This document shows, piece by piece, positions 2,366-19,388 of a stretch of 24,000 nt of DNA. Location: NCBI RefSeq assembly GCF_000195915.1, contig NC_002578.1, positions 963,644 to 987,643 of the forward strand. Direction: 5' to 3'. Source of the stretch: Thermoplasma acidophilum DSM 1728. Its GTDB lineage: Archaea > Thermoplasmatota > Thermoplasmata > Thermoplasmatales > Thermoplasmataceae. Made by a program: the position numbers and the translations under genes. The notes below the pieces were generated by a model that saw nothing but the letters and a program-made list of their open reading frames with translations, was not told the origin of the DNA and did no database searches. Position 1 is the first letter of the stretch. Each line of letters opens with the position of its first letter.

Positions 2366-3451
2366 ATGACTGAACAGAAAGCCATTGTGACAGATGCGCC
2401 CAAAGGTGGCGTGAAATACACAACAATAGACATGCCTGAACCGGAACATTACGACGCCAAGCTTTCACCTGTATACATAGGAATATGCGGAACGGATCGT
2501 GGAGAGGTGGCTGGTGCCCTGTCATTCACGTACAATCCAGAGGGGGAGAATTTTCTTGTTCTCGGGCACGAGGCGCTTCTGCGTGTTGACGATGCCCGTG
2601 ATAATGGCTACATAAAGAAGGGCGATCTTGTAGTACCCCTCGTGAGAAGGCCTGGAAAATGCATCAACTGCAGAATAGGCAGGCAGGATAACTGTTCCAT
2701 AGGTGATCCGGACAAACATGAGGCTGGAATAACTGGGCTTCATGGTTTCATGCGCGATGTCATATACGACGATATAGAGTATCTCGTTAAGGTTGAAGAT
2801 CCAGAACTGGGAAGGATCGCAGTGCTTACGGAGCCTCTGAAAAATGTCATGAAGGCTTTTGAGGTCTTCGACGTTGTGTCAAAAAGATCCATATTCTTCG
2901 GGGACGATTCCACGCTCATAGGTAAGAGGATGGTCATAATAGGCAGCGGGAGCGAGGCTTTCCTCTACTCGTTTGCAGGCGTAGATCGCGGTTTCGACGT
3001 CACAATGGTGAACAGGCACGATGAGACGGAAAACAAGCTGAAGATCATGGACGAGTTCGGCGTCAAGTTCGCAAACTACCTTAAGGACATGCCGGAAAAG
3101 ATAGATCTCCTGGTTGACACCAGTGGTGATCCAACGACGACATTCAAGTTCCTCAGGAAGGTAAACAACAACGGCGTCGTCATATTGTTCGGCACGAACG
3201 GCAAGGCGCCCGGCTATCCAGTGGATGGCGAGGACATAGATTACATCGTGGAGAGGAACATAACAATAGCCGGATCGGTTGATGCCGCGAAGATACACTA
3301 CGTGCAGGCCCTTCAGTCCCTCAGCAACTGGAACAGAAGACACCCAGATGCCATGAAGAGCATCATAACATACGAGGCGAAGCCGTCCGAAACCAACATA
3401 TTCTTCCAGAAACCACACGGAGAGATAAAGACGGTGATAAAGTGGCAGTGA
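2366..3451 (+). CDS. gdh: Glucose 1-dehydrogenase, zinc-dependent medium-chain dehydrogenase/reductase family (non-phosphorylative Entner-Doudoroff pathway)
   Basis: The 361-aa ORF starts [48 protein letters not shown] recognise this as the Thermoplasma acidophilum glucose dehydrogenase sequence. It carries the MDR zinc-ligand region GICGTD...GHE and the nucleotide-binding loop IIGSGSEA. Confidence 0.95.
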
Positions 3452-4278
3452 AGATCCTCAGGGGAGAGGAGATCGCCGAAAAGAAAGCCGAAAACCTGCA
3501 TGGGATAATTGAAAGATCCGGGCTCGAACCATCGCTGAAACTTATACAGATTGGAGATAATGAGGCTGCCTCAATATATGCCAGGGCAAAGATCAGAAGG
3601 GGAAAGAAGATCGGTATAGCCGTGGACCTGGAAAAGTATGATGACATTTCGATGAAAGACCTTCTGAAGAGGATAGACGATCTAGCGAAGGATCCACAGA
3701 TAAATGGAATCATGATAGAAAATCCGCTGCCAAAGGGCTTTGATTATTATGAGATAGTCAGGAATATTCCCTACTATAAGGACGTGGATGCGCTCTCCCC
3801 ATACAACCAGGGACTCATAGCCCTTAACCGTGAATTCCTCGTGCCTGCAACACCCCGTGCCGTGATAGATATCATGGATTACTATGGATATCATGAAAAT
3901 ACGGTGACCATAGTGAATAGATCTCCCGTTGTTGGCCGGCCACTGTCGATGATGCTTCTCAACAGGAATTACACAGTATCGGTATGCCACAGCAAAACAA
4001 AGGATATAGGCTCGATGACAAGATCTTCGAAGATCGTGGTTGTGGCCGTGGGAAGGCCTGGATTTCTCAATAGGGAAATGGTTACACCAGGGTCCGTTGT
4101 CATAGATGTCGGCATAAACTACGTAAACGACAAGGTGGTTGGGGATGCAAATTTTGAGGATCTTTCAGAATATGTAGAGGCCATAACCCCTGTGCCGGGA
4201 GGGGTTGGCCCGATAACGGCAACAAACATACTCGAAAACGTTGTGAAGGCGGCAGAATTCCAAAAAAACAACCTGTAA
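3442..4278 (+). CDS. folD: Bifunctional methylenetetrahydrofolate dehydrogenase / methenyltetrahydrofolate cyclohydrolase
   Basis: The 278-aa ORF has the C-terminal [11 protein letters not shown] motif and [11 protein letters not shown]...CHSKT typical of FolD. It uses a GTG start at 3442 and overlaps the gdh stop (3449..3451) by 10 nt. Confidence 0.9.
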
Positions 4279-5257: not shown

Positions 5258-6556
5258 ATGACGGCCATCTTTCCATTTGGATATTATCTGGACGTGAGCC
5301 TCATTCTCGTTCTCGGGGCCATAGCTCTGCCCATATCCAGGAAGATGTCCGTCGTTGAGATACCGATACTGGTCTTTCTAGGCATAATAATAGGGCCGAT
5401 GCTTCACCTGATTAGCCCTAATTTTTCCGTCTACCTCTTCTCCTCATTCGCCGGCGTAGGCATAGGAATGATGGGGCTTGTGATCATACTGTACAGCGAA
5501 AGCCACAACATGAATCTTAAGGTGCTCAGAAGCGAGTTCTACCGCATAGCCTCGCTGGACACTTTGGGCGTTATAATAACTGCAGTCGTTGCTGGGCTTG
5601 TCTTCACCGTACTGACTGGAGCCCCAATAATAGTGGGCTTCCTCTTCGGTGCCATAGTGTCGCCAACCGATCCGGTCACTCTGATACCACTGTTCAGGCG
5701 CGTAAAGGTGAGCGAGGACATATCGGAGATACTTGTAGGCGAAAGCCTCTTCAACGACCCGGTTGGCATAATACTAGTATCGGTAGGCATTGCGCTTCTG
5801 GCCCCGCAATCCTCTTATGTTTCACTGTTTTCGGCCATGAATAGAGTGATAACATTCTATCCGTCGATCGTCGCGTACTTTCTGATTCAAGTGGCTGTTC
5901 CATCCATAGTTGGAATAGCAATAGGGTTCAGCGTCATATACTTGGACAAGAAGATAAAGTTCGAAAATTACTTGACGGCCATGCTCCTCGGCCTGGTAAT
6001 ATTTGAATTCACAGTGTTCGAAAGCCTGTCGATAACGCCTTTTCCGGCCATAATAGCGACCGGCGCAATTGTCGGCAATTTTTCGGACAAGAACATATTC
6101 TGGTCAAGGGAACAGAATTTTCAGGAAAGCCTTTCATTCCTCAGCGCGGCAATCATCTTCATACTCATAGGATCTTCTTTCACACTTTCAGAAATAGTTT
6201 CCTACATTCTCCTCGGGATTGCGCTGACCATCCTGATCGTTTTTCTGGTCAGGCCGCTTGCCGTATTCCCAAGCCTCATGATAGCCGATGCCAGGAAACC
6301 GAAGATGAAGTCGTATTACAAGATTGCGGCATTCATATCCCTAGTCGGCCCCAGAGGGGTTGTGCCAGTCGTTCTCTCAACCCTTCCATACGTGGTCGGC
6401 GAGGAATACAACATCCCTGTTCTTGTCACATGGGGCCCGCTTATAAGCGTATCTGCGCTCTTCGTGGTACTGTTCTCAATAGTTCTACAGACGCTTTACA
6501 CACCCATAATAAGAAACATTTTCCTGCCTGATTCAGGAAATGGCTCCGAGAAATAG
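5258..6556 (+). CDS. Na+/H+ (monovalent cation/proton) antiporter, CPA1 / NhaP type
   Basis: The 432-aa polytopic membrane protein has more than 10 hydrophobic segments. It contains GAIVSPTDPV and GESLFNDP motifs typical of CPA1 exchangers. It starts 6 nt after the nadE stop, so it is likely co-transcribed. Confidence 0.85.
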   Translation: MTAIFPFGYYLDVSLILVLGAIALPISRKMSVVEIPILVFLGIIIGPMLHLISPNFSVYLFSSFAGVGIGMMGLVIILYSESHNMNLKVLRSEFYRIASLDTLGVIITAVVAGLVFTVLTGAPIIVGFLFGAIVSPTDPVTLIPLFRRVKVSEDISEILVGESLFNDPVGIILVSVGIALLAPQSSYVSLFSAMNRVITFYPSIVAYFLIQVAVPSIVGIAIGFSVIYLDKKIKFENYLTAMLLGLVIFEFTVFESLSITPFPAIIATGAIVGNFSDKNIFWSREQNFQESLSFLSAAIIFILIGSSFTLSEIVSYILLGIALTILIVFLVRPLAVFPSLMIADARKPKMKSYYKIAAFISLVGPRGVVPVVLSTLPYVVGEEYNIPVLVTWGPLISVSALFVVLFSIVLQTLYTPIIRNIFLPDSGNGSEK

Positions 6557-6588
6557 TCCGATCGTGTGCGAAAACTCTTGTCAATCGC

Positions 6589-6602
6589 ATAAAGTTTAAA
6601 AT
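6589..6602 (+). promoter_or_regulatory. TATA-box-like element (ATAAAGTTTAAAAT) for the four-gene type IV filament-like operon
   Basis: The element is centred about 29 nt upstream of the GTG start at 6625, with no SD sequence. It is the only AT-rich box in the 68-nt spacer after the antiporter gene. Confidence 0.4.
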
Positions 6603-6624
6603 CAGCCGCACGGGATTTCATTTC

Positions 6625-7875
6625 GTGCAGGCCCAGTATCGCACTCAGGAAGGTGTACATTATGATATAGAATCCAGCGGCTACATGCGCGTGACCGAGC
6701 CGGAGATGGATCAGAACCTGAGAGATGCGATCAGGATGGTTATAAATGAGCTTACATCGTCCTCTGGAGAGGTTTCGCAGTGGACTCTCCGTGAGATAAC
6801 GGCCCGATACAGGAATCTCTACAGGATAAAGGATCCATTTGTTCTTGATTACTATATAAATAGGTATATGTCTGGCCTGAGGAGTGTTTATCCACTTTAT
6901 ATAAACGATGCCATTGAAAGAATAATGTCGAATGGCTATGACAGACCAGTGATCGTGCAGTACAACGGGAAGTATTACGAAACCAATATAACGCTCAAGC
7001 GTGAGGATCTTGATTCAATAGCCATAAGGGTGTCGCAGATGATGGGGAAAAAGATATCGAGCGGCAGCCCCATAGCTTATGGTAACCTTCAGAACTTCAG
7101 ATCGATTGTGACCTTCGGCGATGACGTAACGCCCTTCGGTTCCTCCTTGTACCTTGAGCGGAGGCATGTTGTTGCCGATCCAGAGGCCATGTCAAGCATG
7201 AAGGATCCGATGGTCTCTGCATACCTGATCATGGCTCTGGAAAATATGAGATCGATCATGATCATAGGCCCGGATAGCCCTATGAAAATAGCGATAATAT
7301 ACCATCTCATACGCATGATTGGATCTGAAAAAAAGATAGCGTACATCGGTGAAAACGGCAGGTTCGACTTTCCAAGAAACATAGTTTACATGATGCCCAG
7401 AGAAAGGACAGTTTTCAGCAGCGAGATCAGCCGCACAGATCTCATAAACACTGCACTGAGGCAGAGGCCGGATTTCATCGTCGTCAACGGGCTGACAGCC
7501 AGAGAGTTGCCCGCTGCGGTGCAGGCAATAACCACTGGCCATCCTACATTATCTTCCATGGATATCGATAGCATAGAGAATTTCTCATCCCTGTTCTCGG
7601 ATCCATCCACAGGGCTTTCGAAGGACATGATCAGCCTTTTCGACGTGGTTATTGAAATAGCGGATAACGGGGAATACGTTAAGGCGATATACGAGTATGA
7701 CAGGCTTGAGGGGCAAGAGGTGCTGTACAATGTACCCTTCTCCGCTGACAGGAAAAGGAAGCTCGTTTTCAGTGGATATAGCGGCATATTCCGAAGAATG
7801 TCGAAGGTCATAGGAGAGGATAGCTTCAGGCAGGCACTGGAGAACAGGATGAAGGAACTTGATGGGGGTGCCTGA
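6625..7875 (+). CDS. FlaI/TadA/VirB11-superfamily (T2SSE) secretion-ATPase paralog with degenerate catalytic motifs
   Basis: The 416-aa ORF is collinear by eye with the ATPase at 9456..10694 from the N-terminal domain through the P-loop region. Walker A reads GPDSPMKI (7267..7290) instead of GxxxxGKT. The Walker B / catalytic Glu region reads YIGENGRF versus VLVEDTHEL. The GEIRG box is replaced by NGLTA. The His box TTVH is replaced by SSMD. The start is a GTG at 6625. Confidence 0.7.
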   Translation: MQAQYRTQEGVHYDIESSGYMRVTEPEMDQNLRDAIRMVINELTSSSGEVSQWTLREITARYRNLYRIKDPFVLDYYINRYMSGLRSVYPLYINDAIERIMSNGYDRPVIVQYNGKYYETNITLKREDLDSIAIRVSQMMGKKISSGSPIAYGNLQNFRSIVTFGDDVTPFGSSLYLERRHVVADPEAMSSMKDPMVSAYLIMALENMRSIMIIGPDSPMKIAIIYHLIRMIGSEKKIAYIGENGRFDFPRNIVYMMPRERTVFSSEISRTDLINTALRQRPDFIVVNGLTARELPAAVQAITTGHPTLSSMDIDSIENFSSLFSDPSTGLSKDMISLFDVVIEIADNGEYVKAIYEYDRLEGQEVLYNVPFSADRKRKLVFSGYSGIFRRMSKVIGEDSFRQALENRMKELDGGA

Positions 7876-8722
7876 TCATATGATCAAATCGGCCAATATC
7901 AAGACGGCTGTAGATAGCAGCGTATCCAGGATAATACCGAGATCCACCGTGAAGAAATATGAGGATCTCATGGTCAGGGCCAGAATGAATGCTGGAGCCC
8001 TGACCTATCTCATATCAGCTTACGAATACGCAATCTCCGGCGCGGTGATCGTCATCCTGGCCGGTGTGCTTTCATACGTATTTGCGCATTCAATATGGAT
8101 AATAATTTTGTCCATATCGTTTCTAATATATGCCGTTGCCCTGTACTACCTCTTCACGCTGCCCGAGATAAGGGTGAAATCCATCAAATCAAATATAGAA
8201 CATGTGATGCCAGATGCACTTGCCGTTGCCTATGGCCTGTCGCTTTCAGGCGTGCCTGCAGACACCATGATCAGCGAGCTGGCCGGCATAAAGGAGCTTG
8301 GCGAATTCGCGAAGGAATCCCAGAGAGTGAATTCCTTTATGTACGCAATGGGCTATGATTTCCTCAGCGCTCTTGAACGCAGCGAGAAGGTCAGCGCTTC
8401 TCCGGATTTCTCTAGATTCGTGGCCGGCATAAGATTATCGATAATACTGAACTCAGATCTGACGGCTTTTCTCAGAGACAGACTTGATTACTACGTGAGA
8501 GTTCAGGAAAATAAGTCGAAGTTGTCGCTGGATTCCCTGGGCCTGGCAGCAGAAAGCTATGTTGCGGTGGCCATTGCGTTTCCCATATTGCTCTATCTCA
8601 CCGGATCCATAATATCCATAAAGAACAGCTCCGTTCTGTTCTTCGTTCTTTCTATGATGGTTCTTGTGGTATCGGCTGCGGTTATGGGCTACTTTACAGA
8701 AAGGATAAGGAGGGAAGTATGA
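7862..8722 (+). CDS. Type IV filament platform protein, single T2SSF domain (FlaJ/TadB/EpdJ-like half)
   Basis: The roughly 286-aa ORF has two N-proximal TM helices and a soluble helical domain (MPDALAVAYGLSLSGVPADTMISELAG...GYDFLSALE), followed by C-terminal TM helices. This is the T2SSF architecture. Candidate starts are TTG 7859, ATG 7862 and ATG 7880. The first two overlap the upstream stop at 7873..7875. Confidence 0.65.
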   Translation: MGVPDHMIKSANIKTAVDSSVSRIIPRSTVKKYEDLMVRARMNAGALTYLISAYEYAISGAVIVILAGVLSYVFAHSIWIIILSISFLIYAVALYYLFTLPEIRVKSIKSNIEHVMPDALAVAYGLSLSGVPADTMISELAGIKELGEFAKESQRVNSFMYAMGYDFLSALERSEKVSASPDFSRFVAGIRLSIILNSDLTAFLRDRLDYYVRVQENKSKLSLDSLGLAAESYVAVAIAFPILLYLTGSIISIKNSSVLFFVLSMMVLVVSAAVMGYFTERIRREV

Positions 8723-9459
8723 ACAGAGGCATATATTCAGCGTTGATCGCCATGGTAGGACTCATAATCGGTGGTGTTTTTAAGAACTTCGTCCTTATAG
8801 GCATATTCTTAGTTTCCGCGGTTCTGGTATTCATAGGATCTGGATACACGGAGAAGGCGAAGACAGCCGAGATCAAGAACCTGCAGGTACCATCGCTGGT
8901 CAGGGATCTGTCAGGTTACTCCAGTTATGGCCTTTCCCTCTATTCGGTGCTTCGCATGATAAAAAACGAAGATCTCGGCCCGATAAAGGAAGAGGTTGAC
9001 AAGGCCATGGCCATGATGAAGAACGGCAATACGATAGAGGAGGTTTCTCAGTACCTGCAGAAGAATTCTTCACCGGACCTGGCGCTTGTGTCGGCTGTGC
9101 TCAAGAACGCTGACAACACCGGAAGGGCAGGTGAAACACTGCAGTTCCTGTCCACGTACATGAATGAGAGATCGACAAATCACAAGAACGTTACGCAGAC
9201 ATCAGAAAATTACGTGGGCCTTGTAATAGGCTCATTCCTCATATTCGTTCTGGTCATGGTTGTGGTGGATTTCTATTTCCTGAAGTCAAACGGACATGCA
9301 ATGGTGCTGCTCTCCTCGGTGATCATGATGGTTCAGTCCTATGTGACTGGCTTCTACCTGGGCCTGGTCAGATACGACAGCCTGATATCCGGAACGTTCT
9401 ATGCAGGCATTCTGAGTCTCATTACAGGTTTTCTCCTTGTGGTGGCGGGTTCGCTATGA
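8719..9459 (+). CDS. Type IV filament platform protein, single T2SSF domain (FlaJ/TadC/EpdK-like half)
   Basis: The 246-aa ORF has two N-terminal TM helices, a soluble domain (VPSLVRDLSGYSSYGLSLYSVLRMI...GNTIEEVSQYL...ADNTGRAGETLQFL) and C-terminal TM helices. It shares ATGA stop/start overlaps with both neighbours. Confidence 0.65.
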   Translation: MNRGIYSALIAMVGLIIGGVFKNFVLIGIFLVSAVLVFIGSGYTEKAKTAEIKNLQVPSLVRDLSGYSSYGLSLYSVLRMIKNEDLGPIKEEVDKAMAMMKNGNTIEEVSQYLQKNSSPDLALVSAVLKNADNTGRAGETLQFLSTYMNERSTNHKNVTQTSENYVGLVIGSFLIFVLVMVVVDFYFLKSNGHAMVLLSSVIMMVQSYVTGFYLGLVRYDSLISGTFYAGILSLITGFLLVVAGSL

Positions 9460-10694
9460 ACATCTACGAAGTTAGCGGAAAATACCCCGACGATGTGGCC
9501 ATAATGGGCCTTCGGTATCTAAGCAGTGCGCACGAGATTTCGCTTGATGAGTTTGCTGCCCAGAACGGCATAGACGCGATCACGAAGAACCAGATCGAAA
9601 AATTCGCAGATGATTATGTGAACAGAATGGGCAAGATACAGCCCCTGATAGATGATCCGGACATAGAGGATATAACGGTTCTGCCTGAAAACTACGTATA
9701 CATCTATCACAGATCCATGGGCAGCATGCGCACTAACATCTTCTTCACGGAGTATGAAGCCGGAAGATTCGCTAGGCATCTGGCACAGAGATCCGGCAAG
9801 ACACTCTCCGTCTACAACCCCATCGTGGACATTTCGCAGGGAAACCTGAGGATAAACATCGTTCATCATGATGTATCCAGGCCCACGATATCGATAAGGA
9901 AGCTCAGGTCGAATCCATTCAACCCTGTGAACCTCATCGGCAATGGAACAGCATCAGCGGATGTCATGGCCTATCTCTGGGAAGCCATACAGGCAAGGCT
10001 CAACATACTGATAACGGGATCAACGGCCAGCGGGAAAACAACACTTTTGAACGCGATTGCGATGTTTATTGATCCGCTTCTCAACGTTGTACTGGTGGAG
10101 GATACCCATGAACTTTCACTGCCGGGAAAGAACATATTTTACATGCAGCCCAGGCCAGGTGTCAGCGGCCTCTCCATCCGGGATCTTTTGGATGTAATAA
10201 CCTACAGGAATCCTGATTATCTCATCGCCGGTGAGATAAGGGGACCAGATATAGATGCATTCTTCAACTACCTCGCGTCCGGCAGAAAGGGTATGACCAC
10301 GGTACATTCAGGTGGTCCGGCCAGCCTGATGAGAAGGCTCAGATCTCCGCCAAACTCCATTCCAGATTCAAGCCTCATGAACGTGGACATCATCGTTGAG
10401 ATGAGAAACGATATGAAGCGTTATATTGGTAAGGTCTCAGAGGTTCGCATGGATGACGGCCTTCTTCTGAACAACGTCTATGAATACAATGACGGAGCGT
10501 ACGAGATGTCTGGCATAAGCTATATCGTAAAAAAGATCGCGGATATTAGAGGAATTCCAGAAGCTTACATAGAGGATAGGATAAGAAAGAAACGGGATTT
10601 TCTTGCAAATCTGAACTCTACGATGGGATCGGAAGAGTTCCTTCTGTCTGTATCGAGATTCTCTGCAGACGAAGGTGAAGGGCAGGAAAGCTGA
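9456..10694 (+). CDS. FlaI/TadA/VirB11-superfamily (T2SSE) secretion ATPase with intact catalytic motifs
   Basis: The 412-aa ORF has Walker A GSTASGKT (10017..10040), Walker B / Asp box VVLVEDTHEL, GEIRGPD and a His box MTTVHSG. The N-terminal domain motif DDPDIEDITV is typical of the family. Confidence 0.88.
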   Translation: MNIYEVSGKYPDDVAIMGLRYLSSAHEISLDEFAAQNGIDAITKNQIEKFADDYVNRMGKIQPLIDDPDIEDITVLPENYVYIYHRSMGSMRTNIFFTEYEAGRFARHLAQRSGKTLSVYNPIVDISQGNLRINIVHHDVSRPTISIRKLRSNPFNPVNLIGNGTASADVMAYLWEAIQARLNILITGSTASGKTTLLNAIAMFIDPLLNVVLVEDTHELSLPGKNIFYMQPRPGVSGLSIRDLLDVITYRNPDYLIAGEIRGPDIDAFFNYLASGRKGMTTVHSGGPASLMRRLRSPPNSIPDSSLMNVDIIVEMRNDMKRYIGKVSEVRMDDGLLLNNVYEYNDGAYEMSGISYIVKKIADIRGIPEAYIEDRIRKKRDFLANLNSTMGSEEFLLSVSRFSADEGEGQES

Positions 10695-19118: not shown

Positions 19119-19388
19119 TCAGCGTGACAGCGTGATTTCTATGGATGAAACGTTTGAACTGCCCCTCTCACCCTGGAGAGTTTCAGTGTCAAGTTTTATT
19201 TCCTCGTATTTTGCGTCTGGAATGAATTTATGCCTTGTGATCTCTGCTACATCCACTGCCTTACTGATCGTCTTTCCACGCGCCTTTATGATTATCTTAT
19301 TGGCGTTGTTGTTGAACTGGGTGACCACTGCAAGCACGTAGTTCATTGTCGGTTTCTTTCCTACAAAGATTATGTTCTCCTCTGCCAT
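19119..19388 (-). CDS. albA: Alba (Sso10b-type) DNA/RNA-binding chromatin protein
   Basis: The 89-aa ORF reads MAEENIIFVGKKPTMNYVLAVVTQF...IIIKARGKTISKAVDVAEI, the canonical Alba sequence pattern. Confidence 0.93.
   Translation of the reverse strand: MAEENIIFVGKKPTMNYVLAVVTQFNNNANKIIIKARGKTISKAVDVAEITRHKFIPDAKYEEIKLDTETLQGERGSSNVSSIEITLSR

Follow-up and report, generated by a model that had tools for sequence, protein, structure and literature searches.

A conserved, catalytically degenerate ATPase in a probable CdiP-type cassette of Thermoplasma acidophilum

RESULTS

Four co-oriented genes and their published counterparts

The four genes discussed here lie on a stretch of 24,000 nucleotides (nt) of the Thermoplasma acidophilum DSM 1728 chromosome (NC_002578.1, positions 963,644 to 987,643; the whole stretch is called the window, and positions are counted from its first letter). 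Between 6625 and 10694 on the + strand, they encode two paralogous ATPases of the FlaI/GspE type, E1 and E2, on either side of two membrane proteins, Fa and Fb (Table 1). An initial annotation, made from the letters alone, had proposed at this place four co-oriented genes for a degenerate ATPase, a platform split into two proteins, and an active ATPase, with the families T2SSE, T2SSF, T2SSF, and T2SSE; all four open reading frames (ORFs) are found where it put them, and the profile matches fall in those families. The architecture itself is already published. The new element is a pseudo-ATPase, E1, maintained by selection in place of the first ATPase throughout the family Thermoplasmataceae.

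TABLE 1. Genes and upstream elements of the cassette, in window positions (aa, amino acids)
Feature	Position	Strand	Description
E1	6625..7875	+	GTG start, 416 aa; exact match CAC12030 / WP_048161855; degenerate FlaI/GspE-type ATPase paralogue
Fa	7880..8722 (alternative TTG 7859)	+	280 aa from ATG 7880; exact match WP_048161858; N-terminal-half platform
Fb	8719..9459	+	246 aa; exact match CAC12032 / WP_083808319; C-terminal-half platform
E2	9456..10694	+	412 aa; exact match CAC12033 / WP_048161859; intact FlaI/GspE-type assembly ATPase
TATA-like element ATAAAGTTTAAAAT	6589..6602	+	centre ~26 nt 5' of E1 GTG
Upstream motif (A/G)TGCGAAAA	6567..6574	+	~20 nt 5' of TATA-like box; candidate regulator-binding site

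The junctions are as first described, with one refinement. E1 ends on a TGA at 7873–7875, and Fa can start either at the ATG at 7880 or at the TTG at 7859 (280 or 287 aa, respectively). The ATG is favored, as supported by the orthologues in two other Thermoplasma loci (L005 and L003) and by RefSeq. ATGA overlaps join Fa to Fb (8719–8722) and Fb to E2 (9456–9459).

The initial annotation could recall no functional description of such an architecture; the operon was published in 2016 and tied to a pilus in 2025. In Cuniculiplasma divulgatum, two FlaI-like ATPases (CSP5_0712 and CSP5_0715) flank two TadC-like halves (CSP5_0713-14), with the genes for the major pilins at another place in the genome (Golyshina et al. 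2016; PMC5155288). The C. divulgatum pilus has been solved by cryo-electron microscopy and the machinery named CdiPE1, CdiPE2, CdiPFa, and CdiPFb, with pilin genes ~500 kb from the machinery operon (ISME J 2025; PMC12448462). The same paper describes the presence of two ATPases as unique and the second of them as "enigmatic," considers a PilB/PilT-like pair, and reports that twitching was not found; it makes no mention of Walker motifs or of ATPase inactivity. In the census of Makarova et al. (2016), Clade 4 of arCOG01817 holds NP_394360/NP_394363 (T. acidophilum) and NP_111531/NP_111534 (T. volcanium), and Thermoplasma has one archaellum ATPase, two Clade 4 ATPases, and none in Clade 1. Also in the census are a predicted major pilin family specific to Thermoplasma (arCOG07380) and a family of FlaK-like peptidases (arCOG07367); its text does not discuss the Thermoplasma cassette locus.

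For comparison, one genome per species was scanned with a single peptide pattern taken from the Fa alignment, which gave 11 loci, and two contig look-ups brought the set to 13. The T. acidophilum and T. volcanium reference records were not returned by the scan itself, and the taxonomic distribution is a lower bound. The 13 further loci are from T. volcanium (L003), two Thermoplasma spp. (L004 and L005), three other Thermoplasmataceae metagenome-assembled genomes (MAGs), and seven genomes of Cuniculiplasma type, including Cuniculiplasmataceae SKW1. With the window included, there are thus seven Thermoplasmataceae and seven Cuniculiplasma-type cassettes. Conservation of the gene order across Thermoplasmatales, named at the outset as a check on the proposal, is complete in this set: ATPase–Fa–Fb–ATPase, tightly coupled, occurs in 14/14 loci. 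On these sequences, chance is ruled out as the source of the arrangement.

E1 has lost the catalytic motifs

On the Pfam T2SSE model (PF00437), E1 scores 22.4 bits, just under the cut-off of 24.9, but the NCBIfam FlaI model matches its residues 24–340 with E = 3.6e-27, and it matches afGspE (2OAP) with E = 7e-28. As a FlaI equivalog (NF058587), it reaches 95 bits against a cut-off of 550. The AlphaFold2 model of E1 has a mean predicted local distance difference test score (pLDDT) of 87.7 and superposes on afGspE 2OAP and on FlaI 4IHQ/4II7 with template-modeling (TM) scores of 0.77–0.82 and E-values of ~1e-28 to 1e-31. A scan for transmembrane segments predicts a soluble protein. As modeled, E1 has the two-domain fold (N-terminal plus C-terminal domain) of FlaI/GspE and is a structural, not a catalytic, member of the superfamily.

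At Walker A, E1 reads GPDSPMKI, with the Thr gone, where E2 has GSTASGKT. The Asp box is IGENGRF, Walker B is VNGLTA (with loss of Gly-Glu), and the His box is SMDID (with the second His changed to Asp). The EDI motif and the arginines conserved among active homologues are replaced as well. There remain the P-loop Gly and Lys, RQRPD, and TGH. RefSeq names E1 "ATPase subunit," a label that is probably wrong in the catalytic sense. A contribution of arginine fingers from E1 to E2 in trans was considered and rejected, since the arginines conserved in active homologues are those lost in E1.

The loss extends to all four motifs of the first ATPase in 7/7 Thermoplasmataceae cassettes. An exhaustive HMMER search across 1.84 billion representatives puts no more than three clusters in the degenerate E1 clade, and Walker A is intact in all the other listed matches (147). 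In the seven Cuniculiplasma-type cassettes, each of the two ATPases keeps all four motifs (GVPGVGKT/IEETREI/LGEIRG/TIHAD in one and GGTATGKT/IEDTREI/VGEVRG/TFHAD in the other). Because both CdiP-type ATPases keep them, the degeneration of E1 is derived and specific to Thermoplasmataceae.

This distribution bears on the pair of motors considered for C. divulgatum. Two paralogous ATPases of the secretion superfamily acting on one platform recall the PilB and PilT of bacterial type IVa pili, and in Cuniculiplasma-type cassettes the two ATPases of the operon are both intact. The bacterial motors are, however, both active, with opposite functions, whereas E1 is predicted to be unable to hydrolyze ATP, having lost the Thr of Walker A, the Glu of Walker B, the Asp box, the second His, and the conserved arginines. 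An extension/retraction pair is thereby refuted for Thermoplasmataceae, and for the cassette as such we regard it as very improbable, given that C. divulgatum showed no twitching and that PilT-family ATPases are absent from archaea according to the arCOG census. E1 is presumably a second motor neither for assembly nor for retraction.

E1 is conserved to the same degree as E2

The E1 ORF and its GTG start are intact across seven genomes that share 30–82% identity. Synonymous divergence (dS) is saturated and only nonsynonymous divergence (dN) was compared; in two comparisons, dN is 0.109 and 0.188 for E1 versus 0.116 and 0.195 for E2. At the level of the sequences, E1 is under purifying selection, with the same constraint as E2, and is not decaying. 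The loss of all catalytic motifs and the long stem branch that leads to the E1 clade (see below) are what one would expect of a functionless, decaying remnant. That view is scarcely credible and already contradicted by the intact ORF, the conserved start, the equality of the two dN values, and the confidently predicted fold. E1 has been kept by selection while its chemistry was lost and, therefore, the retained role would be structural or regulatory.

Literature searches found no publication noting an inactive ATPase in the Thermoplasmataceae cassette, and nothing relevant on pseudo-ATPases in type IV pili or on VirB11-like genes of T. acidophilum.

E2 is intact

E2 scores 74.6 bits on the Pfam T2SSE model and 180 bits on the NCBIfam FlaI model, with the cut-offs given above for E1. 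The motifs are intact (Walker A as quoted, Asp box VEDTHEL, Walker B GEIRG, His box TVHSG) and the arginines are kept, so that the proposed pairing of a degenerate with an active ATPase holds. On models of other systems, E2 gives 119 bits for TadA (TIGR03819; E = 2e-34; cut-off 373) and 117 bits for BasE (cut-off 1000). Judged by its motifs, E2 is the sole catalytically competent secretion ATPase, other than that of the archaellum, listed for T. acidophilum in the published census.

The archaellum was considered as the identity of the cassette and rejected: the FlaI equivalog scores are far under 550, there is no fla/arl gene set in the window, and T. acidophilum has a separate archaellum ATPase.

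Fa and Fb are the two halves of a platform

Fa and Fb each contain one T2SSF domain (PF00482; 42.2 and 44.3 bits, cut-off 25.2), as expected for a split platform. Fa aligns to the N-terminal half and Fb to the C-terminal half of full-length ArlJ/UpsF models, although the UpsF model scores for the cassette are 25–27 bits with a cut-off of 400. The hydrophobic segments number about four in Fa and about five in Fb, and the sum of nine is that of a single FlaJ-type platform. From these alignments, Fa and Fb are two halves of one FlaJ/AapF-like platform.

The initial annotation had taken the split as a hallmark of Tad (TadA, TadB, TadC) and Epd (EpdL, EpdJ, EpdK) machines, a comparison that the data do not support. 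The likeness lies in two single-domain T2SSF genes next to a compact FlaI/TadA-like ATPase, and E2 does match TadA significantly. But the TadA score is far under its cut-off and below that of FlaI, and in the profile search neither Fa nor Fb matched the TadB/TadC models; they match the ArlJ/UpsF (FlaJ/UpsF-type) halves instead. In the published tree, both ATPases belong to Clade 4, whereas Epd is in Clade 1, and split platforms are found within Clade 4 too. Tad and Epd loci also differ in having a single ATPase, from another clade, and pilins and peptidase inside the locus. We give an assignment of the cassette to the Tad/Epd type very little credence.

There is also a likeness to the Aap, Ups, and bindosome systems (AapE/AapF, UpsE/UpsF, BasE/BasF), which share with the cassette Clade 4 ATPases and UpsF/ArlJ-type platform halves, and in which pilins can be in trans. 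Unlike the cassette, they work with a single ATPase, and their platform is usually encoded by one fused gene; neither AapX/UpsX nor genes for binding proteins are in the window, and the equivalog scores are far under the cut-offs.

The cassette and its position are shared with Cuniculiplasmataceae

Comparison with the CdiP proteins was made with the CdiPFa and CdiPFb sequences in the supplement of the CdiP paper, which carry errors of optical character recognition (OCR). With OCR errors allowed for, the Fa and Fb of locus L012 are 97–98% identical to the published CdiPFa and CdiPFb, and L012 is, by this measure, essentially the CdiP operon of C. divulgatum. The T. acidophilum Fa is 26% identical to CdiPFa over 269 aa (E = 4e-14) and Fb 23% identical to CdiPFb (E = 3e-15). 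Both alignments are collinear over the full length, and the point of the platform split coincides.

A neighbour-joining tree (100 bootstraps, with 35 outgroup archaeal ATPases) groups E1 with the first CdiP-type ATPase in 87/100 replicates and E2 with the second in 74/100; E1 and E2 group together in none. The stem branch to the E1 clade is long. The less diverged E1 of the L001 type scores 168 bits against the first CdiP-type ATPase and 108 against the second. Taken together with position and synteny, these comparisons give good support for orthology of E1 and E2 with the first and second CdiP-type ATPases, respectively.

The chromosomal neighborhood is conserved too. A block of Na/H antiporter, NadE, FolD, and GDH adjoins the cassette in every locus. 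The order E1–Fa–Fb–E2 and the chromosomal position are, on this evidence from gene content, inherited from an ancestor common with Cuniculiplasmataceae. The cassette points the same way as the upstream Na/H antiporter (5258–10694 in the window) in the window, L004, and L005, which make up the T. acidophilum group, whereas in the 11 other loci (L001, L003, L006–L014) its 3' end is convergent with the antiporter. The difference in orientation implies that either the cassette or the flanking block was inverted in the lineage of T. acidophilum and that the promoter region moved along.

Between T. acidophilum and T. volcanium, the amino-acid identity is 40–51% in the cassette, where the four genes diverge at similar rates, and 67–87% in the flanks. 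The Thermoplasmataceae proteins are also shorter than those of Cuniculiplasma type: ~415 versus 527 aa for the ATPases, 280 versus 323 for Fa, and 246 versus 284 for Fb.

Some further ATPases were noted. Two active archaeal ATPases (P0126 and P0127, of 479 and 502 aa) are 37–44% identical to the CdiP-type ATPases, about equally to the first and the second, while the first and second are 33% identical to each other, below the identity of either to P0126/P0127. These two may represent a single-ATPase lineage near the duplication that made the pair. In locus L009 (a Thermoplasmata MAG), the first ATPase ORF at 251–2773 has 840 aa (P0129), with a long N-terminal extension relative to the Cuniculiplasma-type protein of ~525 aa. 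The L009 Fa and Fb ORFs were missed by the ORF caller, and tblastn matched Fa at 2872–3606. The two-ATPase locus of Aciduliprofundum, which the literature calls similar, was rejected as an orthologue, the census placing it in Clade 2 and not in Clade 4.

Promoter region

A single TATA-like box had been proposed 5' of the operon; it corresponds to ATAAAGTTTAAAAT and is conserved in relatives. An A/T-rich box with the same spacing to the conserved GTG start occurs in 7/7 Thermoplasmataceae loci; this spacing, together with the conservation of the GTG itself, favors the longer version of E1. From the position of the TATA box, a single leaderless operon transcript may be implied.

Further 5', the motif (A/G)TGCGAAAA is kept in four Thermoplasma genomes (window, L004, L005, and T. 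volcanium L003); in T. volcanium it is retained despite a different upstream neighbor gene. In the sister clade, ATACGTGAAAA occupies its position. The motif occurs once in the window, which is the chance level on count alone. It could be a candidate regulator-binding site that travels with the cassette. A scan of the window for sigma-70 promoters and intrinsic terminators returned fewer sites than shuffled controls, such a scan not being meaningful for an archaeon.

Surroundings of the cassette and search for pilins

The genes of the window beyond the cassette all belong to housekeeping families, as the initial annotation had said of the flanks. They include pyruvate kinase, GDH, FolD, NadE, the Na/H antiporter, an Obg-like GTPase, a radical SAM protein, PolB, MscS, IF-2B, an aldose epimerase, an SDR and an MFS protein, prephenate dehydratase, PCNA, and Alba. 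The ORF for the Alba chromatin protein (19119–19388, - strand, 89 aa, Pfam 73.6 bits) is unrelated to the cassette.

The 24-kb window had been described as free of pilin, prepilin peptidase, and archaellum accessory genes, and it is. In a FlaFind-like scan of every ORF of at least 40 aa, the window yielded no class III signal peptide. Its gene annotation contains no prepilin peptidase, no archaellum accessory gene (FlaB, FlaH, FlaF/G, FlaC/D/E), and no AapX/UpsX. The class III scans of the window and of all the loci returned only false positives (the Fb N-terminus, MscS, and antisense ORFs), and no pilin was found within 10 kb of the cassette in any locus. A literature search on FlaFind and Thermoplasma found no gene list.

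Of the two options left by the initial annotation, a minimal motor with filament subunits encoded elsewhere or a repurposed machine, we judge the first to be probably right; the pilins of the orthologous CdiP system are ~500 kb away. Pilins can act in trans in Clade 4 archaeal systems, where split platforms also occur, and such pilins are published for CdiP and for Haloferax PilB/C.

DISCUSSION

We consider it likely that the cassette is the T. acidophilum orthologue of the CdiP-type machine, with E2 as sole motor, Fa and Fb as one platform, pilins acting in trans, and E1 as a noncatalytic partner. In the mechanism that we propose, transcription from the TATA box at ~6595 would yield a single leaderless mRNA, from which the four proteins would be made by translational coupling, and Fa and Fb would assemble into one nine-helix platform, the equivalent of FlaJ/AapF. 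Hexamers of E2 would dock on the Fa/Fb platform and use ATP to lift pilins from the membrane into the filament. The pilins would be encoded and processed elsewhere in the genome, with arCOG07380 as the predicted major pilin and arCOG07367 as the FlaK-like peptidase. E1 would be a structural or regulatory partner, either in a ring with E2 or as an adaptor between E2 and the platform.

The resemblance to the CdiP system of C. divulgatum covers gene order, the split point of the platform, chromosomal neighborhood, and nonadjacent pilins, and, by position, each ATPase and its counterpart are reciprocal best matches. The two differ in that both CdiP ATPases have all the catalytic motifs and ~525 aa, whereas in the window the first ATPase is dead and the four proteins are shorter. 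Cassette identity between them is only 24–29%. A pilus is observed in Cuniculiplasma and predicted in Thermoplasma.

Several points weigh against this interpretation. A pilus of CdiP type in Thermoplasma is, as just said, a prediction. The CdiPB pilin used as query (exact sequence, PDB 8REY) gave no Thermoplasma-named match among 120 listed of 379. The case for orthology of E1 is built from position, synteny, and a distance tree in which the E1 branch is long, and the raw scores of E1 are 107–120 bits to unrelated active archaeal ATPases versus 105 bits to the CdiP-type first ATPase. The values of dN/dS are rough. E1 may still bind nucleotide, since the P-loop Gly and Lys and TGH are kept. Finally, physical contact of E1 with E2, Fa, or Fb is likewise a prediction.

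Some of the same observations would suit a cassette that has been repurposed, with no pilus in Thermoplasma, for example to present binding proteins with class III signal peptides in the manner of a bindosome, to secrete, or to take up DNA. Pilins are lacking near every locus and no Thermoplasma-named CdiPB homologue appears among the matches listed; Thermoplasmataceae have shortened versions of all four proteins and an inactivated E1; and a 2026 preprint proposes that archaeal type IV filament machines acquire functions through class III binding proteins. However, the orthologous CdiP cassette is likewise without nearby pilins and yet linked to an observed pilus, the census lists a predicted major pilin family specific to Thermoplasma, and the BasE score of E2 falls far short of the cut-off. 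Repurposing therefore seems to us quite improbable.

Within the CdiP-type interpretation, E1 could act in more than one way. One proposal, which we put forward tentatively and hold to be somewhat doubtful, is that the Thermoplasmataceae motor has made one of its paralogous ATPases an obligate dead subunit, in a mixed E1/E2 ring or as an E1 adaptor ring. Alternatively, E1 would assemble into an inactive hexamer of its own and, in competition with E2 for docking on Fa/Fb, would act as a brake that gates pilus assembly. The ancestral state, with two separately intact ATPases that possibly docked alternately as homohexamers in the manner of bacterial PilB/PilT, would lend itself to such competition, and E1 is conserved and, as modeled, keeps its full two-domain fold. 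But as first gene of a tightly coupled operon, E1 would be made together with the machine it is to inhibit, and profile searches find no regulatory input domain in E1; a brake is, in our opinion, unlikely. We favor obligate partnership of E1 with E2 and the platform over a competitive brake, because E1 is coexpressed as first gene of the same coupled operon.

In the archaellum, the FlaI hexamer is paired with FlaH, a second protein of nucleotide-binding fold that is not a motor and that modulates or organises the motor. The pairing of an active motor with a nonmotor partner (ArlI/ArlH in the other nomenclature) is a functional analogue of E2 with E1. Unlike E1, FlaH is KaiC/RecA-like and not a paralogue of FlaI, and the archaellum ATPase of T. 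acidophilum is a separate protein.

The Thermoplasmataceae cassettes constitute a natural experiment, in which the first ATPase lost catalysis and stayed constrained through divergence at the level of the family. Its catalytic loss and its constraint together indicate that the retained role would, therefore, be independent of ATP hydrolysis. An E1 that is dead yet conserved suggests a nonmotor role for the puzzling second ATPase of these machines. If this is true, the conserved function of this "enigmatic" second ATPase in CdiP-type systems would be architectural rather than that of a motor, and Thermoplasmataceae would possess a type IV filament motor that contains a pseudo-ATPase, a design that we did not find described for type IV filament systems. 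Should E1 turn out to belong to the motor, type IV filament motors would have their first example of a pseudo-enzyme subunit.

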